From positions 1 through 62,365 of IMG/VR virus record IMGVR_UViG_3300044632_002565: a stretch of DNA of 62,365 nucleotides; one strand, given 5' to 3'. The notes under the pieces were generated by a model. The model had not been told where the DNA came from and ran no database searches. It saw nothing but the letters and a program-made list of their open reading frames with translations. Every line of letters starts with the position of its first letter. Positions within the stretch are counted from its first letter, which is position 1. This DNA comes from a virus. Its lineage: Duplodnaviria; Caudoviricetes. Shown here one piece after another: positions 8,977 through 47,404 of the stretch. Position numbers and translations under genes: made by a program.

Positions 8977-8990
8977 AAACTTCTGAAAAC

Positions 8991-9135: not shown

Positions 9136-9186
9136 ACTAAAATAAATATATTCTTTTTCATAAAAGTGTCAAGTGTAGGGTGTCAA

Positions 9187-9402: not shown

Positions 9403-9412
9403 ATCTTTTTTT

Positions 9413-9501
9413 TGGTACCTGAGGCCGGAGTCGAACCGGCACGGACATTACTGTCCAAGAGATTTTAAGTCTCTCTTGTCTACCTATTTCAACACTCAGG
9501 T
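9413..9501 (-). tRNA. tRNA-Leu(TAA)
   Basis: AGAGA-CT TAA AA-TCTCT; long variable arm GGACA-GTAA-TGTCC; encoded CCA. Confidence 0.95.
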
Positions 9502-9527
9502 GATATTCAAAAATAGTAAAAAAAATT

Positions 9528-10253: not shown

Positions 10254-10274
10254 AAAAATAAATATATTAAATGT

Positions 10275-11203: not shown

Positions 11204-11229
11204 ACTCAGTTTTTATATGATTCAGTTTG

Positions 11230-11302
11230 AGCCAGAGACAGGAATCGAACCTGCGACATACTGATTACAAATCAGTTGCTCTACATGCTGAGCTACTCGG
11301 GC
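11230..11302 (-). tRNA. tRNA-Thr(TGT)
   Basis: ACTGA-TT TGT AA-TCAGT; one acceptor mismatch; D-loop lacks GG. Confidence 0.85.
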
Positions 11303-11306
11303 GAAG

Positions 11307-11380
11307 CGTCCTCTCAAGGGCTCGAACCTTGGACCTAGTGATTAACAGTCACTCGCTCTAACCGACTGAGCTAAGAAGAC
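11307..11380 (-). tRNA. tRNA-Asn(GTT)
   Basis: AGTGA-CT GTT AA-TCACT; G73. Confidence 0.93.
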
Positions 11381-11385
11381 GTTTG

Positions 11386-11459
<74 letters not shown>

Positions 11460-13568: not shown

Positions 13569-15236
13569 ATGAAAGTCTTAGGTTTTTCTAATGGCCACGA
13601 CAAAGGAGCGGTCATAATTGAAGACGGTAGAATACTTGTCGGTATAACACAAGAAAGATTATCGAGAATTAAACACGATGGGGCATACCAAGGTGGAAAA
13701 ATACCCTTTGAGTCAATAAATTATTGTCTGAACGCTATAGGTTGTTCAATTAGGGAAATTGATTATTTTGTTTATAGTACCACTGAAAATATTGATGACG
13801 TCGAAGACCAATTTTTTTCAAAATTCTCACATGTGAGTAGAGAAAAAATTCAATTCATTCCTCATCATTTAGCACACGCATACTCAAGTTTTTTCAGTTC
13901 GGGATATGATGAAGCAGCTGTTGTTGTGGCCGATGCCTCAGGTAGTATAATCACTTATAAAAATAAAACTCATGAGTGGTATGACCCTAAAAAATGGGAT
14001 TTAAATCCTGATTTTGATTGGGCCGAGGGAATTTCAATTTTACATCTAAAAAAGGATTCTTACGAAGAACATTATAAAAGATGGGTGAAGTTTCCTGTTC
14101 CATGGAACACAAATGAAGAAACATCTTTAGGTACCATGTATTCTGAAGGTACATTACAACTTGTGTATGAACCTTCGAACCATACTTGGAGTGCCGGTAA
14201 ACTAATGGGATTAGCTTCTTATGGGGACCCAAAATTAGTTTCAGAAGCACCAGATTTTGTTAAAGAGATTGATGGAGAATTATCTATTCTCAATAACAGT
14301 ATTTACCCAAAAGTTAAATGGTCATCTGATTTCTTTTCTCGGTCAGTTGCTGCCGGAATTTATCAAAGGGAACAAGAAAGAGCTTCTTTGATTTTAGCTA
14401 AAATGGCTAAAAATATGACCAATTCCAATAACATTTGTGTGGCCGGAGGGTCTTTTCTAAATTGTAATTCAAATGAGCTTATTTTGAAATCAGGTTTGTA
14501 TGAAAATTGTTTTTTCTTACCTCCTGCCGATGATAGCGGTATTCCCCTCGGGTGTGCTTGGTACGCATATCAAAAAATGACTGAAATAAAAAATACAACA
14601 AAAATTTCACCTTATTTCGGAAGACCATACCACAAAAATGAAATTATATCCGCTTTAAATGAATACCCTGAGTTAGATTTTAAAGAATATAAAGATTTCA
14701 ATGAGTTGGTTGAACAAGTTACTTATTGGTTGACACAAAATAGAGTCATTGGATGGTTTCAAGATGGTTCTGAAATAGGTCCCAGAGCCTTGGGTAACAG
14801 GTCAATTATTGCATCACCAATTACAAAATGGATGTGTGGCCACATAAATGCCGACATTAAAGGAAGAGAGTGGTATCGTCCTTTCGCTCCAGCAGTTCTC
14901 TACGAGTATCAAAGTGAAATATTTGATATGGATTATTTATCTCCACATATGTTAGTGACAACAACTGTGAAGGAATCTTGGAGAGAAAAAATACCCTCAG
15001 TTGTCCATGTAGATAATTCAGCAAGAATTCAGTCCGTTACGGAAAAAAATAATTATAAATTTTATACCCTTATTAAAAGTTTTTATGAAAAAACTCAGGT
15101 TCCTGTACTTTTAAACACAAGTTTTAACGGACCGAGTGAACCAATTGTGGAAACTCCAAATGACGCAATAAAAACTTTTATAAATTGTAATTTAAATTAT
15201 TTGGTACTGAATAATTTTTTAATTTGGAAAAACTAA
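13569..15236 (+). CDS. Carbamoyltransferase (NodU/CmcH/TobZ family) 1
   Basis: GHD, ERLSRIKH, HHLAHA, GKLMGLASYG, EIGPRALGNRS, RPFAP, LLNTSFN. Confidence 0.92.
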   Translation: MKVLGFSNGHDKGAVIIEDGRILVGITQERLSRIKHDGAYQGGKIPFESINYCLNAIGCSIREIDYFVYSTTENIDDVEDQFFSKFSHVSREKIQFIPHHLAHAYSSFFSSGYDEAAVVVADASGSIITYKNKTHEWYDPKKWDLNPDFDWAEGISILHLKKDSYEEHYKRWVKFPVPWNTNEETSLGTMYSEGTLQLVYEPSNHTWSAGKLMGLASYGDPKLVSEAPDFVKEIDGELSILNNSIYPKVKWSSDFFSRSVAAGIYQREQERASLILAKMAKNMTNSNNICVAGGSFLNCNSNELILKSGLYENCFFLPPADDSGIPLGCAWYAYQKMTEIKNTTKISPYFGRPYHKNEIISALNEYPELDFKEYKDFNELVEQVTYWLTQNRVIGWFQDGSEIGPRALGNRSIIASPITKWMCGHINADIKGREWYRPFAPAVLYEYQSEIFDMDYLSPHMLVTTTVKESWREKIPSVVHVDNSARIQSVTEKNNYKFYTLIKSFYEKTQVPVLLNTSFNGPSEPIVETPNDAIKTFINCNLNYLVLNNFLIWKN

Positions 15237-15237
15237 A

Positions 15238-16833
15238 ATGAGTAGAATTTACGGTATGTTCACCGGCTCGCATAGCCCGTGTATAGCTTACTTAGAAGAT
15301 GGAGAAATAATTTTTTCTTTAGAGGAAGAACGTTTGACCAGAATAAAGGCTGGTGATAATTTTGACATTCAAGCTGAACTTTGTTTGAATAGAGCTGAAA
15401 TAGAAACAAAAATCAAATTTCATGAAGCCGATTACAGAGTAATAGCTCAACCTGTACCTGATGAATTTTTGAGAAAAATTTCCAAAGGACAACCTTACGA
15501 AAGAGTAAGTCATCACACCGCTCATGCCTACGGTGCTTATTTTACAAGTGGACTCGAAGGTAAAGCAATTACAATAACTTACGACGGGGGTGGTCAAGAA
15601 TCTGTAATGAAAATTTTTTTATGTGAAGATGGAAAAATGACTTTAATAAAAAATATACCATACGCAGGTTTTGGTAGTTTATCTCATTTATGGGGTTTCA
15701 GCACATCTAGCATGAGAGGTTACGATGAATACAACGAAGGGAAATGGAAAATGTGTAAAGATGAGGGAAAACTTATGGGAATGGCCCCTGATGGGTTTTA
15801 CGATGAAAAAATTTATAAAATTTTGAATTCATTGGTGAATTATGAAAATTTAAGATTTTTTCCTTCAGGAACCGCGTCAAAAACACAATTTGTTTGTGAC
15901 ATGATGTTTGAAGATGGCTTTTTTGAAAGTCAAATGAACAAAGAAATTTTTTGTTTCAATCTTCAAAAATTGACAAATGACTTGATGTTGAGATTCATAA
16001 ATGATTTACATAACTTATATCCTGAATATACAAAACTTTGTTTTGCTGGTGGCCTTTTTGCAAATGTGAAACTGAATCAACACATAAACGAATTACCTTG
16101 GGTTGATGAGGTTTATATTTTACCACCTATGGGTGATGAGGGATTAGCATTAGGTGCTGCAATATATAAGGCTGTAGAGATTGGTGAGTGGTCCAAACCG
16201 AGACGTCTAAAAAATGTTTTTTTTGGTTCAAAATACTCTGAAGAAAAAATTCAAAGGTCATCAACTTATTATAATTTCAAAAGAAAAGAATATGATGTAA
16301 AAGAGATGGCAAAAAAAATTGCCGATGGTAAAATAGTCGGATGGTTTAATGGAGGTTCTGAATTAGGTCCTAGAGCTTTGGGTGCGAGAAGTATCTTAGT
16401 GAAACCTACGGACAAAGAAACCCATAAAATTCTAAACGGAAGACTTAAAAGATATGATACAATGCCCTTTGCACCAATTGTTATGTCTGAACATTTTGAT
16501 GAAATTTTCACCTGTTCAAAATCAAAGTATACCGCAGAATTCATGACTATGTGTTATTCAACAAAAGAGGAATGGATTGACAAAATTCCAGCAGTAATCC
16601 AAAAATCGGACAAAACAGCAAGACCTCAAATTGTGGTAAAAGAGTCAAATCCAAAGTTTTGGGAAATCTTGAATGAATTTTATTTGATAACAGGTATTCC
16701 TGTTCTTTTAAACACATCATTCAATTCTCACAACGAGCCGATTGTTGAACATCCTCGTCATGCCTTTGATTCTTTACAAAAAAAAATAATAGATGAACTC
16801 ATATTAGAAGATTATGTATATTACTCTGAATAA
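15238..16833 (+). CDS. Carbamoyltransferase (NodU/CmcH/TobZ family) 2
   Basis: EEERLTRIK, HHTAHA, DGGG, EGKLMGMA, ELGPRALGARS, LLNTSFN. Confidence 0.92.
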   Translation: MSRIYGMFTGSHSPCIAYLEDGEIIFSLEEERLTRIKAGDNFDIQAELCLNRAEIETKIKFHEADYRVIAQPVPDEFLRKISKGQPYERVSHHTAHAYGAYFTSGLEGKAITITYDGGGQESVMKIFLCEDGKMTLIKNIPYAGFGSLSHLWGFSTSSMRGYDEYNEGKWKMCKDEGKLMGMAPDGFYDEKIYKILNSLVNYENLRFFPSGTASKTQFVCDMMFEDGFFESQMNKEIFCFNLQKLTNDLMLRFINDLHNLYPEYTKLCFAGGLFANVKLNQHINELPWVDEVYILPPMGDEGLALGAAIYKAVEIGEWSKPRRLKNVFFGSKYSEEKIQRSSTYYNFKRKEYDVKEMAKKIADGKIVGWFNGGSELGPRALGARSILVKPTDKETHKILNGRLKRYDTMPFAPIVMSEHFDEIFTCSKSKYTAEFMTMCYSTKEEWIDKIPAVIQKSDKTARPQIVVKESNPKFWEILNEFYLITGIPVLLNTSFNSHNEPIVEHPRHAFDSLQKKIIDELILEDYVYYSE

Positions 16834-27033: not shown

Positions 27034-28188
27034 TTGAAAAAAAAATCAATAATCGACTGTTGTTTTATCTATGATGAGATAGAAATGCTAAAATTCAGGT
27101 TTACTGAGTTATATGATTTTGTTGACAATTTTATTGTGGTTGAAACCAATCGCGATTTCAACGGAGAAAAAAAAGATTTTAACTATGAAACAAAAGAAAT
27201 TTTTTTTCAAAATTGGTTAGATAAAATTATTTATTTGAAATGTGACCTTGATTCTTATCAAGAAGATTCAGATATCAAATTTCAAATATCAAAAATTCAG
27301 TCAGTCATTTTAAATCAGCTAAAAAGTATGAAGTTGGATTATGAAGATTACATACTTTTTTCTGAGGTTGATGAATTACCCCCAAAATTTAGCATAAATG
27401 ATTTGGATAAAATTTTGAGTTTCGAACCAATTGCTTTCTTACAGAAAAATTTTGTTTGTTCCACAGAATATGTCAACACAGAAAACCATTTGGGAACTTT
27501 TTGTTTTACTTTTTCACAATTCCTGAGAGAGAATAATATTATAGACAGTCTTTATTTTAACAAAAATATTATTCATTCAATTTATTACAGAATAGTCGAG
27601 GGTGGGTTTCATTTTTCGAAGTTTGGTAGTGTGGAATCAATAATCAAAAAAACTAACTTGATTGAAAAAAAAGAAATAACTTCGGATGAGGTGAGTAATT
27701 TCAAAAAAAACTTGAGATATTGGGATGATAATTTACCCTTTTTTAAAAACTACGAAGGACCATTACCACAAAATATAGATATCATTGAAAAACCTTTTTT
27801 TGAATCTATCGAACCGAAAAGAAATATAATAATATTGAATTTCAATCAGAATCTTGTTGATGTTTCTAAATTTTCTGAATTCACTAATATTTTAAATTTC
27901 AATTTTACAAAATCCTATGATTATCCACACAAAATAATTGTAACAGATTATTTGACCAATTTTAATATTTTCATACCTGAAAAAAAATTTTACAACTCTG
28001 AAAAATTTGAATTAGAATTTGGATTAAATGAAATAAAAAACGTTTTATCAAAATTAAATTGTCTAAATCAAGATATCTTTGAATTTTATATATATGATGA
28101 AATTTTTCACCTTGATGAGTTTACCGAACTTACTTGGCTTGACATAAAAAATAATCGAATTTATGATTTATTAAAAAACCCCTCATAA
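27034..28188 (+). CDS. Glycosyltransferase family 17-like protein
   Basis: IDCCFIYDEIEML.FR..EL...VDNFIVVE, SEVDELP, GFHFSKFG. Confidence 0.75.
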   Translation: MKKKSIIDCCFIYDEIEMLKFRFTELYDFVDNFIVVETNRDFNGEKKDFNYETKEIFFQNWLDKIIYLKCDLDSYQEDSDIKFQISKIQSVILNQLKSMKLDYEDYILFSEVDELPPKFSINDLDKILSFEPIAFLQKNFVCSTEYVNTENHLGTFCFTFSQFLRENNIIDSLYFNKNIIHSIYYRIVEGGFHFSKFGSVESIIKKTNLIEKKEITSDEVSNFKKNLRYWDDNLPFFKNYEGPLPQNIDIIEKPFFESIEPKRNIIILNFNQNLVDVSKFSEFTNILNFNFTKSYDYPHKIIVTDYLTNFNIFIPEKKFYNSEKFELEFGLNEIKNVLSKLNCLNQDIFEFYIYDEIFHLDEFTELTWLDIKNNRIYDLLKNPS

Positions 28189-30229: not shown

Positions 30230-30412
30230 ATGAAAAACGAAGAGTTAGTTAAAAATCTCATCAAAGAGGCTGAAGAATTAAAAATCAAAGAGAACGTTCT
30301 TTGCACGGTTGAAAAACTCATGGAGCTGAATCCCCTAATGAGTAAATTGGACGCATTGAAATTAGCTTTGAGTAACGCTAAACTACATGCAGGTTTAAAC
30401 GTACGTAAATGA
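30230..30412 (+). CDS. Hypothetical protein
   Basis: Coupled to thyA. Confidence 0.55.
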   Translation: MKNEELVKNLIKEAEELKIKENVLCTVEKLMELNPLMSKLDALKLALSNAKLHAGLNVRK

Positions 30413-31752
30413 ACAATTTAGACAAACAATATCAAAGACTTTTACAAGATATTATTGATTATGGTGTAGAAAAGACCGATAGGACCGGTACTGGTACAAA
30501 ATCTATCTTTGGTTACACCATTAGACATAACATGAAAGAGGGATTCCCGCTTCTTACCACTAAGAAGATGGCATGGAAATCTATTGTAATTGAATTACTA
30601 TGGTTTTTAAAAGGGGATACCAATATCAAATATCTTGTTGATAATGACTGTCATATTTGGAATGGTGATGCGTATAAGAGATATCACACTGTAATGAATA
30701 GCGATGACTACATTGAAAATTGGGTTGAACCGGGAAAGGAACGAGAAGAAGCTAGAAAAAATAAAGGAAATAACGGTTATACTAAAGAAGAATTCATTAA
30801 TGAAATAAAAACAGATGATGAGTTTGCTAAGAAGTGGGGTGAACTCGGTCCCCTGTATGGAAAGCAATGGAGAAGTTGGGGTAAAAAAAACGTAATAAAT
30901 TATGATTTAGAAAATGTAAAAAGTTCTGACAAAGTTAAAGTTATGGACTTAATTCATGATGGTGGCGATTATAGTAAATATGATGTTAAAGTAACATACC
31001 AAAATAATTCAATAGACCAAATCGCAAACCTAATCAACGACCTTAAAACAAATCCAGACTCAAGACGATTAATGGTTAATGCTTGGAATGTAGGTGAATT
31101 AAACCGAATGGTTCTTCCACCTTGTCATTATGGATTTCAAGTTTATACTAGAGAGCTGAGTTATGAAGAAAGATGCGATATATTTAAACCCAATACTAAG
31201 AATTTTAGAACTGAAACAAATTCATATATAAAAGATTTGAACATTAAAATAATGAATGATTGTGAAATTCCAACTAGAGCAATTTCTCTGATGTGGAATC
31301 AACGCTCTGTCGATACATTCCTTGGTTTACCTTTCAATATAGCTTCATATGGTTTACTTCTCACATTTCTTGCGAAAGAGGTCAATATGGTACCTGACCA
31401 ACTAATAGGAAACCTTGGCGACGTACACCTATATTCAAATCATATCGAACAAGCAAAACAACAAATTGGTCGTGAACTGAGTTATGAAGAAAGATATCAC
31501 ACTTGGTTTGCAAACAACTACGAAACCGGTTTTGAATATAATGAAAATGAGAAAGTAGATTTTGATAACCCCTATTGGACTCCAACACCAAAATCGACGA
31601 GAGAACCTTACCCTTTACCTGAAGTTTTGTTAAATTTTGAATATGAGTATCAAGAGGGATATAAAATACTTTGGGACAAAATAGATTTAAATAAGATTGA
31701 AATTTTAAATTATCAATCACATCCTCCAATCAAAGCACCTTTATCTAACTAA
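30409..31752 (+). CDS. thyA: Thymidylate synthase with large insertions
   Basis: DRTGTGT, FPLLTTKK, ELGPLYGKQWR, LPPCH, QRSVDTFLGLPFNIASY, GDVHLYSNH. Confidence 0.97.
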   Translation: MNNLDKQYQRLLQDIIDYGVEKTDRTGTGTKSIFGYTIRHNMKEGFPLLTTKKMAWKSIVIELLWFLKGDTNIKYLVDNDCHIWNGDAYKRYHTVMNSDDYIENWVEPGKEREEARKNKGNNGYTKEEFINEIKTDDEFAKKWGELGPLYGKQWRSWGKKNVINYDLENVKSSDKVKVMDLIHDGGDYSKYDVKVTYQNNSIDQIANLINDLKTNPDSRRLMVNAWNVGELNRMVLPPCHYGFQVYTRELSYEERCDIFKPNTKNFRTETNSYIKDLNIKIMNDCEIPTRAISLMWNQRSVDTFLGLPFNIASYGLLLTFLAKEVNMVPDQLIGNLGDVHLYSNHIEQAKQQIGRELSYEERYHTWFANNYETGFEYNENEKVDFDNPYWTPTPKSTREPYPLPEVLLNFEYEYQEGYKILWDKIDLNKIEILNYQSHPPIKAPLSN

Positions 31753-33773: not shown

Positions 33774-33859
33774 GGAAGTGTGGCAGAGTTGGTCTATCGC
33801 GCTAGTCTTGAAAACTAGAGACCTTAACGGGTCCGTTGGTTCGAATCCAACCGCTTCCG
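33774..33859 (+). tRNA. tRNA-Ser(TGA)
   Basis: CTAGT-CT TGA AA-ACTAG; long variable arm; G73; terminator follows. Confidence 0.95.
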
Positions 33860-33939
33860 CAAAAAGAAGGTGAATTATTCACCTTCTTTTTTATTTGACA
33901 GATATTTTTATTTTCACTATTTTTTCAAAAAACTAATTT

Positions 33940-36388: not shown

Positions 36389-36580
36389 ATGAAAAATTTA
36401 GTGGGATTTTTATTTCTTTTCTGTAGATTTTATTGCGCTTATAAAATATTCATGTGGTTGTTCCAACGAAACTATTATAAAAATAATTTACCAATATCAG
36501 AAATTGAAAACATATTGGTTTTCATAATTTTTGATATATGGATAATGATATCAATACGGGAGATAAATAAAGATTACTAA
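36389..36580 (+). CDS. Small membrane protein
   Basis: Two hydrophobic segments. Confidence 0.45.
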   Translation: MKNLVGFLFLFCRFYCAYKIFMWLFQRNYYKNNLPISEIENILVFIIFDIWIMISIREINKDY

Positions 36581-37680
36581 GGTCGTAAAACAGCTAAAAC
36601 TTCCGGATACACACCCTCCAAAACCTTTTCGTTTTTACCTTCGTATGGTATGTTTTGCAAAACATATCTTATAGAATTCAAACCTGAAATTCTTTTATCT
36701 TGTGAATCAATAATAACCCAAGGGTGATTTATTGTTGAAGTTTTATCAAATAATTTTTCTTTAAATTCTGTAAACCTGTCCCACAAATCTTGCATTTGGG
36801 CATCGTTTGGAGAATATTTCCAATATTTCAATGGAGATTGTTGCCTCATTTGAAATCTTCTTTTCTGTGTTTCTTTATCTATAGAAAACCATAATTTGAA
36901 AAGATAATCTCCCTCCTTCACCAAATCGTTTTCGAAATCCTCAACGTTTTCCATAAAATCTTCATATTCCTCAGGGGTTCCATAACCCATGACAGGCTCA
37001 ACCAACCCTCTGTTATACCAACTCCTATCAAAAAAATTTATCATACCAGGTTGTATTCTATCTTTATACCTGTTCCACCAATTTTTTCTTTCATCAGGTG
37101 TAGGTATACCCAAAGCAATCACGTTATAATATCTCGGATTCAAATTCTCTGTAAATTTTTTTATTGTTGAGCCCTTACCCGCCGAATCTCTACCTTCGAA
37201 GACTATTATCACCGTTTTTCCCGTTTTTCTCAACCACTCTTGTAGTTTGACCAATTCAATTTGTAAGTAGTATAATTCTTTTTTATATATCTTTTTGGGT
37301 AAAATTGATGGTTCCTCGGGTTCAAATTCATAATCTTCACTTTCTGGTTCGACACCATAACCCCCTCTTTCCCTGAATTTCAAGGAAATAATAATATTTT
37401 TAAAATATTCTTCAATGTTCTTTTTTTTATCCCCTTTTTTCAGAAGAATTTTTCTTAAACCCCTATCCACCATTTCAAAATCAATAATTCTATCCTCGGA
37501 TAATTTTGAAATTTTCCAAAGTAACCCCTCGATTTTTTTATTATATAATTTCAAGAAAGTTAAAGTATCAACAACTTTTTTTAAATTGACATTCATGAAG
37601 GGAGCATCTTCAGGATTTTTTTTACCCTCAGAAAGACCCATAACAAACCTAATTCTTTCTACATCATTTAATAAATTCAT
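36577..37680 (-). CDS. ppk2: Polyphosphate kinase 2 with about 125-aa N-terminal extension
   Basis: Walker A FEGRDSAGKG, Walker B FDRSWYNR, WKYSPND lid. Confidence 0.93.
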   Translation of the reverse strand: MNLLNDVERIRFVMGLSEGKKNPEDAPFMNVNLKKVVDTLTFLKLYNKKIEGLLWKISKLSEDRIIDFEMVDRGLRKILLKKGDKKKNIEEYFKNIIISLKFRERGGYGVEPESEDYEFEPEEPSILPKKIYKKELYYLQIELVKLQEWLRKTGKTVIIVFEGRDSAGKGSTIKKFTENLNPRYYNVIALGIPTPDERKNWWNRYKDRIQPGMINFFDRSWYNRGLVEPVMGYGTPEEYEDFMENVEDFENDLVKEGDYLFKLWFSIDKETQKRRFQMRQQSPLKYWKYSPNDAQMQDLWDRFTEFKEKLFDKTSTINHPWVIIDSQDKRISGLNSIRYVLQNIPYEGKNEKVLEGVYPEVLAVLRP

Positions 37681-37744
37681 AATGAATTTTTTTATAAATA
37701 GTTGAGTTTAGTCATATTTATAGATTACCAAGTTACTAACAAAA

Positions 37745-38236
37745 ATGAAAAAATTATTCGTTTTAGCAATTTTTTTGCTATCTACCCTATTTTCATTTGG
37801 ACAAAACAAAAAGATTTGCTTGAATTCAATAGAAAACAAGATACAAATCGGTCAGATGATGGGAAATAGAAACCTTACTTTTGGTTTTAAAAACATTTTA
37901 TTAGAATATCTACAAGAAAAAGATTTACAACTTATTGACAGTTGTAATTTAGCTGATTTGAAAATTCAAATTGAATTAATTTACTTTGATGTTTTGAAAA
38001 CCAATTCGGGTTTTTCCGTAATCCATAAAGAAAACGACGAAACAGTTCTTAGGGTAAAGGCTAAGTTATTGAATACCGACGGAAAAAAAATCAAAGAAAC
38101 TTCAGTGACTGAAAAATCATCTGAAATATCAATGTCAACTTTGATAATTGCAGAAGGTGGTAAAATAAATCAACAATCCGTCTCAAATGTAATAAAAAAA
38201 TCATGCGAGACATTAATCAAAAATCTATTTGAATGA
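37745..38236 (+). CDS. Secreted protein, possibly CsgG/TolB-N-like fold
   Basis: Signal peptide; C-terminal INQQSVSNVIKKSC resembles FNQSTIGITTKKAL of 41013 ORF. Confidence 0.55.
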   Translation: MKKLFVLAIFLLSTLFSFGQNKKICLNSIENKIQIGQMMGNRNLTFGFKNILLEYLQEKDLQLIDSCNLADLKIQIELIYFDVLKTNSGFSVIHKENDETVLRVKAKLLNTDGKKIKETSVTEKSSEISMSTLIIAEGGKINQQSVSNVIKKSCETLIKNLFE

Positions 38237-40137
38237 TGAAAAAATTATTTACATTACTTTCATTATTGTCATTCCCATTTTTAGGTTTTTCACAGACACC
38301 AGAAATTGGTCACTTCCAACAATTGAAAACTGTAAGAAGAGGTGACACGTTAGATGTTGCTTGGTATTACAAACCAGCAGCTGGTACGGATGTGAGAAGT
38401 TTCCAAGTGGATTGGCAATATAAAAAACGACTTTTCACCCACATATCAACAACTGTTGATGTTGCGGTTAGTGGAAACGGTCCTGAAATTTCTTACAGAA
38501 GTTGGGAAGATTACAAATATCAATCTTACTCAAGTGGAAATTATACTTATGTGTCCGACACAAACTGGACTATTGCAAGAAACTATTTGGTTTTATCTAA
38601 CGGTTCACAGGTTTCTTCGAACGGATATATAATTCACAACAAATATATAATAAACAACGTAATCCCAAATTTCGTTTCAGATACTGTTACGTTAAATTGG
38701 GCTAGAATGTTTAAGGTTGACGGAACAACAATTGGTGACAATGTAGCGATTTTAAATTACAACAAACTCGCGGTAAAATTACTTGGAAATCTTACAATTT
38801 CAGGTAAGGTTTGGCTTCCACCATCAGTAGTTACAAGAGGATGGGTTCCAACTTTATATTGTTACGAAAATGCAACAGGAAATCTGGTTTCAACAACAGT
38901 TCCAGACATAAACACAGGTTTATACGTTTTGGACAACATCGATGAAAATACAAGATATAAAATTGAACTAAGATTTAATCCTGACAGTTTGGTTTCAATC
39001 AGAGATAATTCAGTTACAGTTACAGATGCGGTAAAAGCTTTCAACGAATTTGTGAACGCTGACATTTCGCAAACTTACCCTCGTACCTACTTACAAAATG
39101 GATTGGCATATTTGATTGCAGATATAAATTGGAACCAAAAATTTGACGGGGGTGACCCTTATGGTATTTACGCTTCGGTTTCAGGACTCAGACCTATTGC
39201 AACTAATAACTTGATAAAAGTTTTTACCAAAAACGAATTTGATAGTTTGGCTTTGGGTATAAACCAATGGTCAGATTGGACAACTTACAATAGTAGACAA
39301 AATTTTGTTTTGGATACGGTTCTTACATCTAATTTGTCACTTGATTTGAAATACTATATACAAGGGGATGTTGATAGAAGTCACTCCTCTCCTGTTTATG
39401 ACGCTAATGGAAACCTTGTAAGAGGTCCTGTTTACACGGGAAGATATAGTGTCAATATTCCTAACTCATACTCTGTAGGTCAACCTATGTTTGTACCATT
39501 TAACGTGTCAACAAACGGATTAGTGAATTATGGACTACAATTTGAAATGAAATATGACCCGACAAAAGTTAAATTTACAGAAATAATATCGAAAGTTCCG
39601 AATGAATGGTTACAATATGTAACTCATGATGACCAAAATGGAATCATCAGATTCGGTGGAATGAATAATCAAAAAAAGGGGGGGATAATTGGTTTATCCA
39701 CCCCCTTTAATTTAAAATTTACGCCAATTGACCCTTCGGAGGATATTTCTTCTTATGTTTTTGTTAGACAACTAATGGACGCCTCCAATTCTGAAGGTGA
39801 ACATTTCAATATTGAATTAGCATCTGAAAGAATAGTTTTAACTTATAGAGCGGCAGGGCCAATATTAGCCGTAACGAAGCCTATTGCAGAAATCAGACCA
39901 AATCCAAATTCGGGACAATTTGAATTAACTGTTACATTTCCGAATAATTATTGGATGAAAGGTTATGTTTATGATTACAACGGAAGAAAGGTTTTGGATT
40001 TAGGAGATTTCAAAACCGATGAGTTTACAAACGTAATCACAAGAGCAATTAACGCCAAAAATCTAGCACAAGGTAAATATTTGTTAGTGATGGCGAATAA
40101 TAATGAAAGAATAACTAAACCATTTGTAAAAATTTAA
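38233..40137 (+). CDS. Secreted cohesin/dockerin-like protein with T9SS type A C-terminal domain
   Basis: Signal peptide; ADINWNQKFDGGD and GDVD Ca loops; GLQFEMKYDPTKVKF cohesin-like; IRPNP..YDYNGRKV..LAQGKYLL..KPFVKI. Confidence 0.75.
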   Translation: MMKKLFTLLSLLSFPFLGFSQTPEIGHFQQLKTVRRGDTLDVAWYYKPAAGTDVRSFQVDWQYKKRLFTHISTTVDVAVSGNGPEISYRSWEDYKYQSYSSGNYTYVSDTNWTIARNYLVLSNGSQVSSNGYIIHNKYIINNVIPNFVSDTVTLNWARMFKVDGTTIGDNVAILNYNKLAVKLLGNLTISGKVWLPPSVVTRGWVPTLYCYENATGNLVSTTVPDINTGLYVLDNIDENTRYKIELRFNPDSLVSIRDNSVTVTDAVKAFNEFVNADISQTYPRTYLQNGLAYLIADINWNQKFDGGDPYGIYASVSGLRPIATNNLIKVFTKNEFDSLALGINQWSDWTTYNSRQNFVLDTVLTSNLSLDLKYYIQGDVDRSHSSPVYDANGNLVRGPVYTGRYSVNIPNSYSVGQPMFVPFNVSTNGLVNYGLQFEMKYDPTKVKFTEIISKVPNEWLQYVTHDDQNGIIRFGGMNNQKKGGIIGLSTPFNLKFTPIDPSEDISSYVFVRQLMDASNSEGEHFNIELASERIVLTYRAAGPILAVTKPIAEIRPNPNSGQFELTVTFPNNYWMKGYVYDYNGRKVLDLGDFKTDEFTNVITRAINAKNLAQGKYLLVMANNNERITKPFVKI

Positions 40138-40141
40138 AACT

Positions 40142-40450
40142 ATGTCAGAAGAACAATTAGAACAAAATGATGGGTCTTGGTCAGGACTAAAGAAGACCAT
40201 CGTAGGAACACTCGGAACTGTTGTTGCGGGTGGTGGCGTATGGCTAAGCACTTTGTTGTTTGGCGGTCATGAAGAAAAACAAGAACAAGCACCTCCTCCT
40301 CAACCAACAATCGTAATTAACAATTCTCAACAACAGCAAGCAGCACCTGAGAAAACTGTGATTATCAAAGAAAAAGCGTCGCAACCTGCCGCTAAACCAG
40401 CTGAACCTGCTCCAAAACCTAAACCTTTTTCAGAGGAACCAAAATGGTAA
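40142..40450 (+). CDS. Single-TM protein with Pro/Gln-rich tail
   Basis: TM then QAPPPQPTIVINN, PAAKPAEPAPKPKP. Confidence 0.7.
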   Translation: MSEEQLEQNDGSWSGLKKTIVGTLGTVVAGGGVWLSTLLFGGHEEKQEQAPPPQPTIVINNSQQQQAAPEKTVIIKEKASQPAAKPAEPAPKPKPFSEEPKW

Positions 40451-40453
40451 TTT

Positions 40454-41011
40454 ATGAGTCAACAAACACCAACAGGATTTAAAGATTTATTAAACTCCAT
40501 GATGAAAAAGAGATGGTGGATTACCGCTCTTGTTCTTGGAGGATTTGTTGTAATCATCGGCGCAATTTTTTTGGCTATTTTTGAACAAAGTGCTATCAGT
40601 GGAGAGTGGAAAGAGCTTCTACTTTTATTACTTGGTGCTTTTATCGGTTCTTATGGTAAGATTATTGACTATTGGTTCAGTGATACAGATAAGGACAAGA
40701 TGTTAGTTCAAAAAATGGACGAAGAGGATGGTGTATCTTTCTCATCTACTTTAGATATGAAAGATTCTGCATCGGCTCAACATAATGAACCTATTGTGGT
40801 ATCCACCCCTCAAGTAACCCCTCAGGTCGCCCCTCAAGTCGGTGTCGAAATCGATGAAGATGGTGATGGTACAATGGATGGTATCGATGAGGATGGTGAC
40901 GGTATTATAGACATGTATTTCGAACATCGTCAGTGTGAACACGTTTGGGGTGACGCTGATGGTGATGGAGATGAAGAGTGTCTTAAATGTGGTCTTATTA
41001 AACAAGTTTAA
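40454..41011 (+). CDS. 2-TM protein with DxDGDG Ca-binding repeats and Cys/His motif
   Basis: LLLLLGAFIGSYGKIIDYWF; DEDGDG x2, DADGDG; CEH...CLKCG. Confidence 0.75.
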   Translation: MSQQTPTGFKDLLNSMMKKRWWITALVLGGFVVIIGAIFLAIFEQSAISGEWKELLLLLLGAFIGSYGKIIDYWFSDTDKDKMLVQKMDEEDGVSFSSTLDMKDSASAQHNEPIVVSTPQVTPQVAPQVGVEIDEDGDGTMDGIDEDGDGIIDMYFEHRQCEHVWGDADGDGDEECLKCGLIKQV

Positions 41012-41012
41012 A

Positions 41013-41729
41013 ATGAAGAAAATTTTATTACCTGTATTTCTACTCGTATGCTCATTTGTGAACGCACAAGTTGTGGGAACAACTAAAACTGAGCAATACA
41101 AAGCAAGTTTCGAAACAAAAATCAATATTGATTCTTTGATGGATTACGATGGTCCACAAATTCCAATTCAAATCTTAACAATTGGAATTAGTGATGAGGT
41201 ATATGAACAGTATCCTGAGCTGAAAGAAAAGAAAGTTGGTCTTGGTGTTGCGAATATAAGTTTGGAATTTTTGTCTGAACTAAACAGATTCACTTTTACT
41301 GAAGATAAAACTGAAATAAAAAACCGTATGGTCAAACAGTTTCAGGCATCTCAAGCAGGAATTAGTCAAGACAAATTGGACGGTAGAGGTAAGATTAGAC
41401 TTGCTCATTATTTCGTTACAATCGAAGTTTATGACTTTTCTGTTTCTGAGGATGAGACTGTAAATTTAAAAGATGGAGTTAAAAATATTGTAAACACAAG
41501 ACTCGGTCTTCAGGTTAGATTTACAAACGCAGAAACAGGTGAAATTATTGCGGCTTCAGGTCTCGGTGAGGCAAAAACTGTCAGAGAATTATCTCTTTTA
41601 AATGATGATAATTTGAGTGACGTTAAATTCAATCAATCAACAATAGGAATTACTACAAAGAAAGCACTTGAAATTGCTTGTAGTAGAATTCTTGTAAGGA
41701 TGATTAAAAAGGGCGTGTTCCCAAAATAA
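41013..41729 (+). CDS. CsgG/HfaB-like protein
   Basis: Signal peptide; NRFTFTE, AHYFVTIEVYDF, LQVRFTNAETGEII. Confidence 0.65.
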   Translation: MKKILLPVFLLVCSFVNAQVVGTTKTEQYKASFETKINIDSLMDYDGPQIPIQILTIGISDEVYEQYPELKEKKVGLGVANISLEFLSELNRFTFTEDKTEIKNRMVKQFQASQAGISQDKLDGRGKIRLAHYFVTIEVYDFSVSEDETVNLKDGVKNIVNTRLGLQVRFTNAETGEIIAASGLGEAKTVRELSLLNDDNLSDVKFNQSTIGITTKKALEIACSRILVRMIKKGVFPK

Positions 41730-43202
41730 ATGTGGAAAGGGTTAAAAATTTTTTTAAGTATTGTTTGTATCTTCTTTCTCAACTTGAAAGTTGATGCTCA
41801 AACCATTAATTACGAGTTTATAGACCCTTGCACAAAAGCTGTCACAAACTTTTCAATCCCTATTCAGGGAGGAACAATAATTTATTTTTATGGAAAATCG
41901 GCATCATTCACCGCGGCTGACGTGGCGAGTGGTGCTTTTGCCTCTTGGGTCAATCAAGCTTATGTGGACTACAGAAAATTGACACCTTGCTCGGTTCAAT
42001 CCGTAGGTGTCACAAGAAATCAAATAACCGCACAAGTAATCGGAAATGTGGTAAGTAGTGTTGTTGGTCAAATAAACTCATCCGTGATGCAAGGTTCATC
42101 TATGGGTGGAAATGATGCGGGTTCAAAAGACAATAGGTCCGAAAAAACAAGAAATAGAAATGAAAATACTAATTCTAACTCTAATAATTCCGTTTCTAAT
42201 ACTAATAGTAGTGGGACTTCTCCAAATGGGGGCTCAGGTGTATCAGGCGGTCAGGGCAACAGTTCTGTACCTGTGGGAAGTTCTAACCAAGGGGGTCAAA
42301 CTTCTTCTCAAGGGACTTCAAATAACCCTACAAGCGGTGGTAGTGGTGTCGGGGGGAACAGTAATTCTTCTAATAGTGGGGTTAGTAACAATAGTGGTGT
42401 TTCTTCATCTTCTTCTACGGGAAGCGGTGAGAAAGACAAAGAAAAAGGTTCTGAGGTGGTGGCGACAACCGTAATGAATGTTGATGTAAGGAACGACCGT
42501 GGTTCAGAAAGTGGTGGAGGTGGAGGAAAAAAAGGTTCATCAAAATCAGGAAATTCAAACCCGATGATAGTATCATCTGACCTTACTTCCGCTCAAAACT
42601 TAGACAAAAGTTTTACAGGAATTGCAAATGTAGGTGTATCAAGAACCTCTTTAATGGGAACAAGTTCTTGGGGCGTAACAGGAATGATTTGGTTTAATTT
42701 CAAACAATTTGCAATCAACTCAAGATATACAAAAATAAAAATTAACCAATCAGGAACCCTTAAATTCGTTCATAATGTAAATCTAACGGGTGCTTATTCA
42801 TACGGAAACCTATTCTCATTTTTGGGTTATAGTATGATAATAAACGCCAAGAAGTGGGGAATTACAGGATTTAATATAAGTGGAGCTGTTGCCAAACTTC
42901 CTGAAGATAGTAACTTATTTATTAGTCCATCTTTTACTGCATTTTATACCAAGCCAATTGTTGCAAATAAAAAACTTACCATCTCCCCTGAGATTTATTT
43001 AATTTCAACACCTGTGGTTTATTCTTCAGTAGATAAAGTAACTGTAACAGACAGAACATTCAGTGCGTTTATAGGAAGTGGATTTGATTACCAAATCTCA
43101 AGAAGATTCAAATTCAATGTAAATTATAAAGCCAATCTTAGTACCAATCCTGAGTTTCCTATTTTATCATTTTTCTTGATTGGTAGTAAAGTAAATCTAT
43201 GA
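41730..43202 (+). CDS. Secreted protein with G/S/N-rich linker and C-terminal beta-barrel-like domain
   Basis: Signal peptide; low-complexity middle; alternating beta-strands ending FLIGSKVNL. Confidence 0.7.
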   Translation: MWKGLKIFLSIVCIFFLNLKVDAQTINYEFIDPCTKAVTNFSIPIQGGTIIYFYGKSASFTAADVASGAFASWVNQAYVDYRKLTPCSVQSVGVTRNQITAQVIGNVVSSVVGQINSSVMQGSSMGGNDAGSKDNRSEKTRNRNENTNSNSNNSVSNTNSSGTSPNGGSGVSGGQGNSSVPVGSSNQGGQTSSQGTSNNPTSGGSGVGGNSNSSNSGVSNNSGVSSSSSTGSGEKDKEKGSEVVATTVMNVDVRNDRGSESGGGGGKKGSSKSGNSNPMIVSSDLTSAQNLDKSFTGIANVGVSRTSLMGTSSWGVTGMIWFNFKQFAINSRYTKIKINQSGTLKFVHNVNLTGAYSYGNLFSFLGYSMIINAKKWGITGFNISGAVAKLPEDSNLFISPSFTAFYTKPIVANKKLTISPEIYLISTPVVYSSVDKVTVTDRTFSAFIGSGFDYQISRRFKFNVNYKANLSTNPEFPILSFFLIGSKVNL

Positions 43203-44644
43203 AAAAATTCGTTACCATATTTTTATTTTGTTTCGCACAGTTTGTTTCGCATGATTTTTGTTTCGCACAAAGTGTAACGGCACCACCAGGAAGAACTTAT
43301 CAGGTGAGTACCTCAGGTCAAGATGCAAGTGGATTTGTAATCAACGGATTCACATCTGAAACTTTATTAACTTCAATAGGTCTTGTTAATCCCCCCGCAG
43401 GAACAACATTTTCAATCACAACAACTACAGGTTTATCTTTTGCCACAGGATATAACACTTGGTCAAATATCACAAGAATTAGTTTCACAGGAACTCAAGC
43501 AAACGTGAATAACGCTCTCGCCTCACTTAAAATCAACACAGGGTCTGCATTGGGAAGTGTTCAAATCTCAGTTTCAACGACAATAAACCCTGTTGGATAT
43601 TATTACAACGCAACAAATGGTCACTTCTATAGACCAATTTCAACCACCGCAACTTACACAAATTCAAAGGTTTTAGCTGCTCAACAAACCTTCAAAGGTC
43701 AAACTGGTTATTTGGTGACAATTACGTCTGCGGATGAACAAAACTTTATTATTGCAAACGTTCCTCAGAATAATATATGGTTTGCTCTCTCAGACAGACT
43801 ACAAGAGGGTTATTGGAGAGTTGATGCGGGTCCTGAAAATGGAACTTTGGTTAATATTGGAAACTTTAATGGGAACCCTCAACCAGGAACATATCAAAAT
43901 TGGTGTGGTGGTGAACCGAACGATGCCGGTGGTGAAGATTTTGCAGTAACAAAATGGGGTGGTGGTGGATGTTGGAATGATTTACCTGATTGGTCTAATC
44001 CTTATGTAATTGAGTTTGGTACGTGGTCAAATCCTCAGGATGCAACTTTTACAGGATACTACGCAGCAAACACAACTAATACTGTTGCAATTACAAATAC
44101 ACTTTCGGGTACAGTTTCAGTTCCGACACTGAGTCCTTATCCAACTTTGACATTATATAGGGTGGTAAACGGAGTTGAAACCTTGGTCGATTATAAAACT
44201 TTAAGTTCAAGTGGAACTTACACTTTTACTTTACCTCAACAAAATTCGACCTATAAATTAGTCCCCTCTCTTTCGATTCAAGGAATAACAACCGCCGATT
44301 TTACCCCACTATTTAACGAAATTCAAAACGTAAATACACCTAATAACACTCCCTCAGGTTTATTTCTCACAGGAACAAAACAGTGGAAGGCATCTGACGT
44401 AAACAAAAACGGTATAATTGATTTGGGTGATGCATATCTCATCTTAGCACATATCACAGGACTGAGACCTATTACAGAAGTACTTTGGTTCACCTCAACA
44501 AATTATGATTTAATCAATAGAACAAATTTCGGTTCTATTTCACCCGTCACATCTTTTACAATAAATGTGGCAACTTCAAACGTTACTCAAAACATCAAAT
44601 ATTGTATGTTAGGCGACGTCAATTTATCACATTCTTCACAGTAG
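43199..44644 (+). CDS. Secreted C-type lectin plus dockerin-like protein
   Basis: GYLVTITSADEQNFI, W..GEPND..GED, WND; SDVNKNGIIDLGDA, GDVN. Confidence 0.8.
   Translation: MKKFVTIFLFCFAQFVSHDFCFAQSVTAPPGRTYQVSTSGQDASGFVINGFTSETLLTSIGLVNPPAGTTFSITTTTGLSFATGYNTWSNITRISFTGTQANVNNALASLKINTGSALGSVQISVSTTINPVGYYYNATNGHFYRPISTTATYTNSKVLAAQQTFKGQTGYLVTITSADEQNFIIANVPQNNIWFALSDRLQEGYWRVDAGPENGTLVNIGNFNGNPQPGTYQNWCGGEPNDAGGEDFAVTKWGGGGCWNDLPDWSNPYVIEFGTWSNPQDATFTGYYAANTTNTVAITNTLSGTVSVPTLSPYPTLTLYRVVNGVETLVDYKTLSSSGTYTFTLPQQNSTYKLVPSLSIQGITTADFTPLFNEIQNVNTPNNTPSGLFLTGTKQWKASDVNKNGIIDLGDAYLILAHITGLRPITEVLWFTSTNYDLINRTNFGSISPVTSFTINVATSNVTQNIKYCMLGDVNLSHSSQ
43227..43267 (+). repeat. Three copies of TTTGTTTCGCA in signal-peptide coding region
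   Basis: Copies at 43227, 43241, 43257. Confidence 0.85.
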
Positions 44645-44672
44645 AAAATATTTATTAGGAAATTAAATTACT

Positions 44673-45506
44673 ATGTTACTAAAAGTTGGGTCTAGAGGAG
44701 AAGACGTTAAAAAACTTCAACAAAAATTGGGTTTGGGTGCCGATGGAATCTTCGGTAATGGTACTGAGCAAGCTGTAAAAAATTTCCAAACAAAAAATGG
44801 TTTAAATCCCGATGGTATTGTGGGGGAACAAACATGGCAAAAAATCATGGGACAAGGAGTTCTAATTACTGAACCCGCTCCTGTACAACAAGCTCCAATT
44901 GTTAACACAGGTTCTTTGAAATTAGAAAATTTGAAAGGTCACATTCCTGATGATGTTATTGCTCAAATCCCTGATACCGCAAAAAAATTCGGTATTGATA
45001 CACCTCTAAAACTTGCTCACTTTCTTGCACAATGTGGTCATGAATCAGGAGGATTTAGACTCACTCAAGAAAATTTAAATTATTCTGCTCAAGGTCTCAA
45101 AAACATTTTCCCAAAGTATTTTCCTGGTAATCTTTCTGAGTCTTATGCAAGAAATCCTCAGAAAATTGCGTCAAAAGTATATGGTGGAAGAATGGGTAAC
45201 GGTCCTGAATCAACAGGAGAAGGTTTCAAATTTCGTGGTAGAGGTTATATTCAACTCACAGGTAAAGACAATTACACCGCATTTGGAAAAGCAATAAATG
45301 AAGACATTGTTTCAAATCCTGATTTGGTTTCAACAAAATACCCTTTACTCTCAGCGGCATGGTTTTTCAGTAAAAATTGTTTGAAAAGATGTGTTGATGA
45401 TTCCAACGCAACTGTAACTTCCGTTACAAAATGTGTAAATGGTGGAACCATAGGACTTGCTGATAGATTGAAACATTTTAAAGAATATTATCATTTATTA
45501 AAATAA
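44673..45506 (+). CDS. Endolysin: PG-binding domain plus GH19
   Basis: LKVGSRGEDVKKLQ..DGIFG..T; HFLAQCGHESGGF, FRGRGYIQLTGKDNY, VNGG. Confidence 0.93.
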   Translation: MLLKVGSRGEDVKKLQQKLGLGADGIFGNGTEQAVKNFQTKNGLNPDGIVGEQTWQKIMGQGVLITEPAPVQQAPIVNTGSLKLENLKGHIPDDVIAQIPDTAKKFGIDTPLKLAHFLAQCGHESGGFRLTQENLNYSAQGLKNIFPKYFPGNLSESYARNPQKIASKVYGGRMGNGPESTGEGFKFRGRGYIQLTGKDNYTAFGKAINEDIVSNPDLVSTKYPLLSAAWFFSKNCLKRCVDDSNATVTSVTKCVNGGTIGLADRLKHFKEYYHLLK

Positions 45507-46723: not shown

Positions 46724-47404
46724 ATGACTAAAAAATACGTTTTTATATCAGACACTCATGGAAAACATGAATATCTGACTTCCAACAGGATGGGAAACAT
46801 TTTAGGAAGTGGCGATTGTTTAATCCATGCGGGCGACATTTCAAATGTGGGAAAAGTTCACGAGATTAAAGATTTCTTAGATTGGTTTAGCAATACTGAT
46901 TTCACTCATAAAATCTTCATTGCGGGGAACCATGATTTTGGTTTTGAACTTGTTCAAGACATCGCTCCTGAATATAAGGAGAAGGGAGTTCATTATCTTT
47001 TTGATAGTGAGGTGGTCATTGATGGTGTGAAGTTCTACGGAAGTCCTTGGCAACCTGAATTTTATGATTGGGCATTTAATCTTCCAAGAGGAGAGAAACT
47101 CGCTGAAAAATGGGCAATGATTCCTGGAAATACTGATATCCTTATAACCCACGGACCAGCCTACGGAATGCTTGATTGGGTTCCAAGTGGAACACAAGTA
47201 GGTTGTCAGGATTTGTTCCACAGAGTGATGGAAGTTCAGCCAAAAATTCACGTTTGTGGTCACATCCACTGCGCATACGGTCAGAAGAATTTCAATGGTG
47301 TTGAGTTTTTGAATGCTGCACTTCTCAATGAAAGGTACATACATGAAAACAAACCAATCGTTCTAGATTTTGATGTAGAAACAAAACAAATTGATTACCC
47401 CTAA
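46724..47404 (+). CDS. Metallophosphoesterase (calcineurin-like)
   Basis: SDTH, HAGD, GNHD, ITHGP, GHIH. Confidence 0.92.
   Translation: MTKKYVFISDTHGKHEYLTSNRMGNILGSGDCLIHAGDISNVGKVHEIKDFLDWFSNTDFTHKIFIAGNHDFGFELVQDIAPEYKEKGVHYLFDSEVVIDGVKFYGSPWQPEFYDWAFNLPRGEKLAEKWAMIPGNTDILITHGPAYGMLDWVPSGTQVGCQDLFHRVMEVQPKIHVCGHIHCAYGQKNFNGVEFLNAALLNERYIHENKPIVLDFDVETKQIDYP

Follow-up and report, generated by a model that had tools for sequence, protein, structure and literature searches.

Clusters of csgG and csgF, labeled "curli" clusters, occur in pelagimyophages (the HTVC008M group) and in the Methylophilales phage Melnitz, and the accessible parts of those reports give their function as unknown (PMC7029224, PMC9004378). 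In Melnitz, csgGF adjoins the lysin gene, and both "sibling capture" and a part in lysis timing have been proposed (PMC7029224, PMC9004378). Genes for type-A cargo of type IX secretion systems (T9SS) are described, in the available portion of a further report, for "Cryophage" from cryoconite holes, where they are presumed to hijack the host system and one encodes a PA14 sugar-binding domain (PMC7468147). Here we describe a block of seven genes, g1 to g7, in IMG/VR virus record IMGVR_UViG_3300044632_002565, which was analyzed over its whole 62,365 bases (the window; CheckV completeness, 20%) and in which most proteins have no recognized family. The window belongs to a very large lake-water phage of Flavobacterium-type bacteria. 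Judged from its sequence, the block is abundant and conserved and is a putative phage-encoded envelope/secretion module. Our best explanation, to which we give a probability of about 0.45, is a late module, exported by Sec and the T9SS, that would display a lectin on the infected Bacteroidota cell.

An earlier reading made from the letters of this stretch (the sequence-only reading) had proposed that the phage builds a modular glycan-binding structure on the infected cell with the host T9SS plus a channel of its own; that interpretation is partly supported by the results below. It had also marked seven tightly coupled genes with one direction, and all seven open reading frames (ORFs) are present on the + strand between 37745 and 44644, with junctions that range from a 4-base overlap to a 4-base gap.

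g1, 37745 to 38236, + strand: small exported CsgG-fold paralogue, 163 amino acids
g2, 38233 to 40137, + strand: T9SS cargo scaffold, 634 amino acids
g3, 40142 to 40450, + strand: bitopic inner-membrane protein, 102 amino acids
g4, 40454 to 41011, + strand: membrane protein with a DxDGDG-repeat tail, 185 amino acids; variable member
g5, 41013 to 41729, + strand: exported CsgG-fold protein, 238 amino acids, from an internal ATG of ORF 40935; most conserved member
g6, 41730 to 43202, + strand: stalked outer-membrane barrel, 490 amino acids
g7, 43199 to 44644, + strand: C-type lectin with the shared module, 481 amino acids

The block resembles the phage csgG/csgF clusters, as the accessible parts of those papers present them, in belonging to a lytic aquatic myovirus and in encoding a CsgG-type protein with exported partners and no curli subunits. 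Those clusters, however, encode recognizable CsgG and CsgF in phages of Proteobacteria, whereas g5 has no direct Pfam match, no lipid anchor, and no CsgF beside it, and is accompanied by T9SS cargo, a cohesin-like domain, a lectin, and a 12-strand barrel. Cryophage likewise encodes proteins with T9SS type-A sorting domains, but in the available text its three cargos are variable and separate and two are enzymes (an endoglucanase and a glycoside hydrolase of family 39), whereas each genome here has one conserved nonenzymatic scaffold in a fixed block (PMC7468147). In cellulosomal and noncellulosomal cohesin-dockerin assemblies, too, a cohesin-like domain sits on an anchored scaffold and a calcium-loop module on the protein that is held. 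Here, by contrast, a single loop-helix lies in a larger beta-rich module, anchoring would be through a T9SS C-terminal domain (CTD), a lectin takes the place of an enzyme as cargo, and any binding is putative. PelC serves the barrel PelB as LptE serves LptD, and both PelC and LptE are lipoproteins. Those pairs share with the block a small CsgG-fold periplasmic protein encoded beside an outer-membrane barrel, but g5 and g1 are not lipoproteins, and g6 gave no sign of homology to PelB or LptD.

Single parts of the block have precedents in print, and the ensemble has none in the literature that could be searched, which omitted most subscription journals and supplements. Lectin, cohesin, and CsgG go unmentioned in the moraphage paper (PMC12619734) and in a jumbo-phage survey (PMC13037316), as do lectin, CsgG, curli, and secretion in a boreal jumbophage preprint and lectin, secretion, and CsgG in the main text of the bS21-phage paper (PMC9723584). 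The agreement of the block with the csgGF clusters, the Cryophage cargo, and the exported proteins of Porphyromonas gingivalis phages, as far as the accessible parts of those reports describe them, makes the kind of system known and the combination apparently new.

Conservation of the block and its phage context

A scan of IMG/VR with g2 returned 45 loci (52 to 97% identity). The six core genes g1, g2, g3, g5, g6, and g7 are colinear in 38 of the 45, down to about 40 to 55% protein identity, and the remaining 7 run off the contig less than 5.9 kb past the start of g2; g3 is kept in all 38 full loci. Conservation as a unit, which the sequence-only reading had staked its case on, is thus well supported. 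One carrier, G001, is a myovirus whose terminally repeated genome is complete at 168,946 bp and has genes for a terminase, a portal, two head-protein paralogues, and a tail sheath in addition to the block. In a closer relative (G003; g2 identity, 74%), a bS21 gene (65479 to 65640, reverse strand) sits beside the genes for a terminase and a head protein; no bS21 gene was found in G001. As bS21 is a hallmark of huge freshwater Bacteroidetes phages (Chen et al., PMC9723584), its position next to virion genes links the group to those published phages.

Outside viral records the block is nearly absent. Among 185,579 species genomes (one each), g5 relatives were found on only three contigs of metagenome-assembled genomes (MAGs), labeled Thiobacillus, Sediminibacterium, and Flavobacterium. 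No match for the sheath protein query or phrog_138 was found in the 112-kb Sediminibacterium MAG contig, record G002, or record G004. Distant CsgG/LpoB-like relatives of g5 occur in 36 of 301 sampled Bacteroidota genomes, at 26 to 66 bits against 288 for the phage type. A metagenome protein collection holds 6168 g5-type clusters at E ≤ 0.001, on contigs reaching 230 kb. The 45 viral loci, the complete phage genome, the 12 tRNA genes of the window, and the near-absence from bacterial genomes make this a phage block, and its ownership by phages is well supported; an ordinary host locus on a misassembled contig, the pitfall named beforehand, is at odds with its presence in a terminally repeated 169-kb genome.

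Megablast of the region against GenBank phages gave no match. A tblastn search of the same phages with g5 led to Flavobacterium phage vB_FspM_immuto (53% identity), which has three isolates, a 160-kb genome, and Flavobacterium sp. LMO8 as its host, and which carries a homologous block (NC_055915).

immuto gp012: leader-bearing nuclease
immuto gp013: C-type lectin with EPN/WND plus the module
immuto gp014: exported protein
immuto gp015: 243 amino acids, comprising leader, cohesin, and CTD only
immuto gp016: homologue of g3
immuto gp017: homologue of g5
immuto gp018: homologue of g6
immuto gp019: homologue of g1

The immuto block thus has a nuclease, a lectin with the module, a cohesin with a CTD, and homologues of g3, g5, g6, and g1, but its gene order is different, the functions of g2 are spread over two genes, g4 is lacking, and the endolysin gene lies 8 kb off. 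RefSeq names two of its proteins "lectin C-type domain-containing" and "cohesin domain-containing." Because the cohesin-CTD part, a gene by itself in immuto, is joined to the module in the g2 of the window, the comparison gives a Rosetta-stone hint that cohesin and module may work together. For the genus Immutovirus, the accessible part of a review notes genes for modified nucleotides and cell-surface glycosylation (PMC11500664). Leader-bearing nucleases of the Endonuclease_NS family (DNA/RNA nonspecific) lie inside or beside the block at L024:7236-7862 and L027:14779-15402 and as immuto gp012; a secreted nuclease would make sense near the time of lysis, for instance to remove DNA that has been set free.

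Scaffold, lectin, and envelope proteins

Five products (g1, g2, g5, g6, and g7) begin with hydrophobic leaders that have Gln directly after the likely cleavage site; leaders and sites were judged by eye from the translations, without a signal-peptide program. Membrane segments are present in g3 and g4, in line with the five signal peptides and two membrane-anchored proteins claimed at the outset. The accessible part of one study describes Gln after signal peptidase I cleavage in Bacteroidetes as the Q-rule (PMC5837995), and the five leaders agree with it. The domains of g2 and g7 are laid out as follows.

g2, ahead of 38788: leader and N-terminal beta-rich part
g2, 38788 to 39396, + strand: shared module
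g2, about 39394 to 39876, + strand: cohesin-like domain
g2, 39898 to 40119, + strand: type-A CTD
g7, ahead of 43676: leader and N-domain
g7, 43676 to 43987, + strand: C-type lectin domain
g7, 44084 to 44641, + strand: shared module, with no CTD after it

The T9SS type-A sorting domain predicted in g2 was recovered above cutoff by both Por_Secre_tail (PF18962; 32 bits against a Pfam cutoff of 27) and TIGR04183 (23.9 bits against an NCBIfam cutoff of 23), and a T9SS CTD was matched in 18 of 18 g2 orthologues. With a CTD above the curated cutoffs and a Sec leader (by eye), g2 qualifies as T9SS type-A cargo, and it is the sole CTD ORF in each of five phage records. For the cohesin-like segment, Cohesin (PF00963) stays below its Pfam cutoff in the window g2; it was matched in 11 of the 18 orthologues at E ≤ 0.05 (best E, 5.1e-5), and the top PDB matches of a cohesin-only g2 profile were all cohesins (ScaB; E, 5.7e-4). 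A whole-protein g2 profile returned nothing significant from the PDB. CarboxypepD_reg was matched in 7 of the 18 orthologues.

In g7, the C-type lectin domain with EPN and WND motifs and the lack of a CTD are as first read. Lectin_C (PF00059) scores 26.8 bits against a Pfam cutoff of 22.6 and is matched in 13 of 13 g7 orthologues, in all of which E239, P240, and N241 and W259, N260, and D261 are invariant; the lectin profile matches langerin, CEL-I, and MBP domains at E 1e-9. An EPN motif goes with mannose-type specificity. For the N-domain, a protein atlas offers cadherin/Big-like leads (score, ≤0.80), to be taken as leads only.

Residues 188 to 386 of g2 and 301 to 480 of g7 are homologous and form one module of ~180 residues (hhalign, 99.2%; E, 2.7e-19), made up of a CarboxypepD_reg-like sandwich, one DxNxNGxxDxGD loop with a helix, and a beta-rich end finishing in GDV(N/D)xSHSS. 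Two module ORFs (g2 and g7), and no more, are present in each of the five phage records. The module was found in 3 of the 301 sampled Bacteroidota genomes, in one case on a MAG contig already listed for its g5 relative, and it appears to be phage specific as far as searched. The best PDB match of the module profile is the ScaH dockerin (E, 3e-4), with both dockerin repeats aligned to the single loop of the module, and Dockerin type I (PF00404) was matched in 1 of 13 g7 orthologues (E, 0.03) and in 0 of 18 g2 orthologues. We therefore read a dockerin-type loop and not a dockerin. The dockerin-like calcium loops claimed for g2 and g7 stand as one such loop per protein; a canonical two-repeat dockerin is ruled out by the single calcium loop-helix of each module. 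A complex prediction for the cohesin part of g2 (388 to 548) with the g7 module (296 to 481) gave a score of 0.14 and a mark of 0.32, values that leave binding neither favored nor disfavored. Module-bearing proteins differ in their heads: in one sub-lineage (L040:15595-17895 and L043:15669-17969), g7 has 766 amino acids, a weaker lectin match (18.9 bits), and extra sequence ahead of the module.

The CsgG-like character proposed for g5, and with a "perhaps" for g1, was borne out by profile, hhalign, and Foldseek evidence. Neither protein has a Pfam match at E ≤ 0.1, a direct match to CsgG (PF03783) included, and g5 has none in NCBIfam. A profile built from 18 g5 orthologues collected 282 representatives at E ≤ 0.001 among 1.84 billion proteins, and 31 of these entered an extended alignment. 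Of the 38 rows in this extended family, 18 are hit by Pfam CsgG (best E, 1.9e-17) and 8 by LpoB. The narrow g5 profile found no match among PDB sequences, and the widened one matches solved CsgG at E 0.0016. The AlphaFold2 (AF2) model of g5 has a predicted local distance difference test (pLDDT) score of 81.7, and in a Foldseek search of the PDB it is matched by CsgG (4uv2 and 4uv3) on top, at E 4.6e-7 and a TM score of about 0.5, and then by PelC, FlgT, LptE, and GNA1162. Among viral library entries, g5 comes closest to a phage "CsgG" (E, 4e-7). One long hairpin, at 133 to 172, is seen in the model, along with a second hairpin region of low confidence; CsgG itself is a nonameric ring whose 36-strand barrel is made from two amphipathic membrane hairpins. 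g1 is a shortened paralogue of g5 (hhalign of the g1 and g5 alignments, 92.7%; E, 4.2e-7). We place g5 in the CsgG superfamily and do not file it as a curli-type pore.

The flexible G/S/N linker and barrel-like end noticed in g6 reappear in its AF2 model. After the leader and a small N-domain with two conserved Cys residues come a disordered G/S/N stalk of about 150 residues (91 to 275, pLDDT below 50) and a C-terminal barrel of 12 long strands (279 to 488, pLDDT 65 to 82). The top Foldseek matches are all outer-membrane barrels (PcoB at E 5.8e-4, with a TM score of 0.49 on the target, TamA, TodX, FapF, EspP, and KdgM), and the model suggests an outer-membrane beta-barrel at the fold level, with no barrel family assigned. 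Low-complexity matches were all that the g6 profile found in the PDB, and the protein atlas gives porin-like leads for the barrel (score, 0.94; leads only). The rule that a beta-signal ends in an aromatic residue is not strict; the C-terminal aromatic is absent from g6, in which all 18 rows end in GSK(V/I)NL, and the immuto homologue ends in F. Alignment rows without the N-domain are an artefact of ATG-only ORF calling, the full frame in L025 having a non-ATG start. Between g5 and g6, at L017:11107-11883, lies a barrel-only g6 paralogue (29% identity) with a leader and a poly-Pro linker.

Of the two membrane proteins, g3 has a Gly-rich hydrophobic segment at residues 19 to 42 followed by a Pro/Lys/Ala-rich periplasmic tail (PPPQP...KPAEPAPKPKP), and its likeness to the VirB10 N terminus is below threshold. 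g4 has a transmembrane segment at 25 to 43, a weaker segment at 54 to 74, an acidic tail whose DxDGDG repeats, as noted earlier, are visible in the translation, and a Cys/His cluster; it has no family in Pfam, PHROGs, or NCBIfam. In one sub-lineage (L034:11964-13059, also L039), two leaderless DUF2589 proteins are inserted between g4 and g5.

Promoter-like motif and timing

37714 to 37721, + strand: promoter-like ATATTTAT motif, 23 nucleotides before the ATG of g1
44648 to 44655, + strand: second ATATTTAT motif, 17 nucleotides before the endolysin gene
g8, 44673 to 45506, + strand: endolysin (PG_binding_1 plus glycoside hydrolase family 19) without a leader; a neighbor of the block, not a fixed member

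The motif reported ahead of the operon, TATTTATA at 37715 to 37722, is part of ATATTTAT upstream of g1, and the block does lie directly before the endolysin gene, which starts 28 nucleotides past the end of g7. Of the 23 occurrences of ATATTTAT in the window, 15 lie upstream of, and at most 45 nucleotides from, the start of a gene on their own strand; for the reverse complement the count is 4. Two control motifs of the same composition gave 0/13 and 0/15, with shifted variants that overlap ATATTTAT intermediate. The bias recurs in the complete relative G001 (33 of 52 occurrences upstream in sense, 1 antisense), where the motif precedes the terminase gene by 21 nucleotides, the portal gene by 18, an adaptor-like gene by 23, the sheath gene by 43, and g1 by 18. 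Upstream of g1, exact ATATTTAT is present, often behind a hairpin and a T-run, in 10 of 18 diverse loci, and TATTTAT alone in 2. In the immuto stretch it flanks the lectin gene, and none was found ahead of the helicase or ribonucleotide reductase genes. To our knowledge, ATATTTAT is unlike both the sigma-70 consensus and the Bacteroidota -7 consensus.

Its placement shows ATATTTAT to be promoter-like and oriented in this phage group, and since terminase, portal, and sheath genes have it in common with the block, the block is probably expressed late, in the promoter class of the virion genes. An aquatic metatranscriptome run yielded 97 contigs on parts of the block, 2 of them at least 99% alike and 67 below 90%, with depth highest on the repeats of the g4 tail; contigs from an RNA library are no proof of transcription and are given no weight here.

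Possible roles of the block and other genes in the window

From these identities we infer where the proteins sit, what they bind, and what they are for. The five leader-bearing proteins g1, g2, g5, g6, and g7 would cross the inner membrane via host Sec. g2 would then be carried over the outer membrane by the host T9SS through its type-A CTD and would stay at the surface as a stalk of beta-sandwich domains with the cohesin-like domain at its end. The g7 lectin would most likely be held by g2, either through a cohesin-module contact or through contact between the two modules, and the one CTD ORF and two module ORFs of each phage record (n = 5) favor such a one-to-one pairing. g5 and g1 may form a periplasmic ring or adaptor under g6, in the manner of PelC for PelB and LptE for LptD, with the g6 barrel on its long flexible stalk exporting or anchoring part of the assembly, and g3, plus g4 where present, might tether the whole to the inner membrane. 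Given late expression, a calcium-dependent lectin coat of the mannose/N-acetylglucosamine type would come into play around lysis, just before it and afterward. By this coat the cell or its envelope fragments could become attached to neighbors or particles, or glycan receptors could be masked, sparing the loss of progeny on debris.

Several observations weigh against this explanation. g7 has no CTD and hence no known route over the outer membrane. The cohesin-like domain of the window g2 scores 17.2 bits, under the Pfam cutoff of 24.1, Dockerin type I matches are nearly absent from the module, and g5 itself falls directly into no Pfam family. The model of g6 is moderately confident, with a single Foldseek match reaching E 0.001. 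g4 was detected in 31 of the 38 full loci and is missing from 7; the endolysin gene follows the block in 18, precedes it in 8, and lies outside the locus in 12. Timing is read from the motif, which in G001 does not stand directly ahead of either of the two head-protein genes. Finally, the phage g5 leaders close in A/S/G-Q without a conserved lipobox Cys, which most of the distant relatives keep, and the g5 hairpin is shorter than the CsgG membrane hairpin in a HMMER alignment and contains invariant S143, S145, D147, and E148. With a short hairpin and invariant Ser, Asp, and Glu residues, g5 may not be a pore at all.

The phage's own channel, part of the sequence-only reading, is therefore doubtful, as g5 has no lipobox Cys and its hairpin is short and polar where CsgG has membrane hairpins; we do not take g5 for a bona fide CsgG pore. 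A bolder version, which we regard as possible but decidedly less probable than the explanation above, keeps a phage-made route nonetheless: a nonlipidated g5/g1 ring and the stalked g6 barrel would be the phage's own display pathway for the untagged lectin, alongside the T9SS-delivered cohesin scaffold, and the cell and its envelope fragments, made into calcium-dependent glycan-binding particles late in infection, would capture neighboring hosts or algal particles to the benefit of released progeny. If true, the virus would be building an organelle of adhesion, with a pair of cohesin and single-loop dockerin that is new and specific to phages.

Other roles fit parts of the block. g3, g4, g1/g5, and g6 might together span the envelope and set the time of lysis or bring it to completion, in place of a spanin or holin or by opening a gate in the outer membrane. 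The endolysin gene right after the block in the window has the same ATATTTAT motif and is inside the fetched locus in 26 of the 38 full loci, no holin or spanin was recognized among the window proteins in PHROGs and NCBIfam scans, g4 has a holin-like layout of two hydrophobic segments and a charged tail, the Pro-rich tail of g3 would span the periplasm, and a lysis role is argued for the CsgG of Melnitz in the accessible text (PMC9004378). Lysis, however, has no use for a T9SS tag, a cohesin-like scaffold, or a lectin whose sugar site is intact; moreover, the endolysin gene is not within about 10 kb in the 12 loci mentioned and is at a distance in immuto as well, and the best holin candidate, g4, is dispensable in 7 of 38, so that we hold a lysis accessory to be unlikely. 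We give equally little weight to superinfection exclusion, in which the lectin-scaffold layer would hide glycans or T9SS-dependent adhesins that serve as phage receptors on the living cell. Such masking has the same anatomy as late lectin display, and Q-rule exported proteins of P. gingivalis phages are suggested, in the available part of that study, to modify the outer membrane (PMC10367356), but it would work best early, at odds with a motif class common to virion genes, and nothing points to a receptor.

Glycan capture and uptake, with a surface lectin, a porin-like g6, and a TonB-like g3 boosting the sugar supply as an analogue of Sus-type systems, is more improbable still. The porins KdgM, PcoB, and TodX among the Foldseek matches of g6, the porin families suggested by protein-atlas features (a lead only), the conserved lectin site, and the Pro-rich tail of g3 agree with it; g3 nevertheless has no TonB C-terminal domain, glycoside hydrolases and transporters are absent from the block, the N-domain and the long disordered stalk of g6 are foreign to porins, and feeding would come at the wrong time under a late promoter class. 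We consider it very improbable that the block has no phage function at the cell envelope, being either a host locus on a chimeric contig or a set of virion structural proteins. The g5 relatives on the three MAG contigs allow for a host locus; on the 112-kb Sediminibacterium contig, the sheath query and phrog_138 had no match. Against it, 45 IMG/VR contigs, a complete terminally repeated phage genome, and three isolates of a cultured phage carry the block, the cellular g5 relatives score far below the phage type, and the module is confined to 3 of 301 Bacteroidota genomes, one of them represented by a MAG contig that also holds a g5 relative; we rejected a host locus or misassembly on the phage-genome context and the near-absence from species genomes, and virion proteins because Sec leaders and a T9SS tag do not suit virions assembled in the cytoplasm.

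A late lectin coat on the infected cell, if true, would alter the aggregation, sinking, and new-host encounters of infected cells and would be a clear case of a virus exploiting two host export systems together. The 6168 g5 clusters, on contigs of up to 230 kb, place the block in large phages that are abundant and belong to Bacteroidota of fresh and brackish water, a group through which algal carbon is turned over. Display tools for Flavobacteria could be derived from the cohesin/module pair and the CTD, and the homologous block in the cultured pair of immuto and Flavobacterium sp. LMO8 opens the question to direct testing.

The window also holds 12 tRNA genes, 11 in its first 11.5 kb (1994 to 11459) and another at 33774 to 33860. 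A PPK2 gene (36577 to 37680, − strand; 243 bits) lies directly upstream of the block on the opposite strand and is found in closer relatives only. Two tandem genes of the NodU/CmcH carbamoyltransferase type (13569 to 16833; phrog_1601; E, 4e-109 and 3e-89) and a gene for a glycosyltransferase like those of family GT17 (27034 to 28188; E, 1.6e-16) may modify glycan or DNA. A thymidylate synthase of 447 amino acids (30409 to 31752) aligns along its full length to 279 positions of its PHROG profile, with an apparent insertion of ~170 residues. Near the endolysin gene, an ORF of 226 amino acids (46724 to 47404) has calcineurin-like phosphoesterase motifs (by eye), and the immuto phosphoesterase gene likewise adjoins the endolysin gene.

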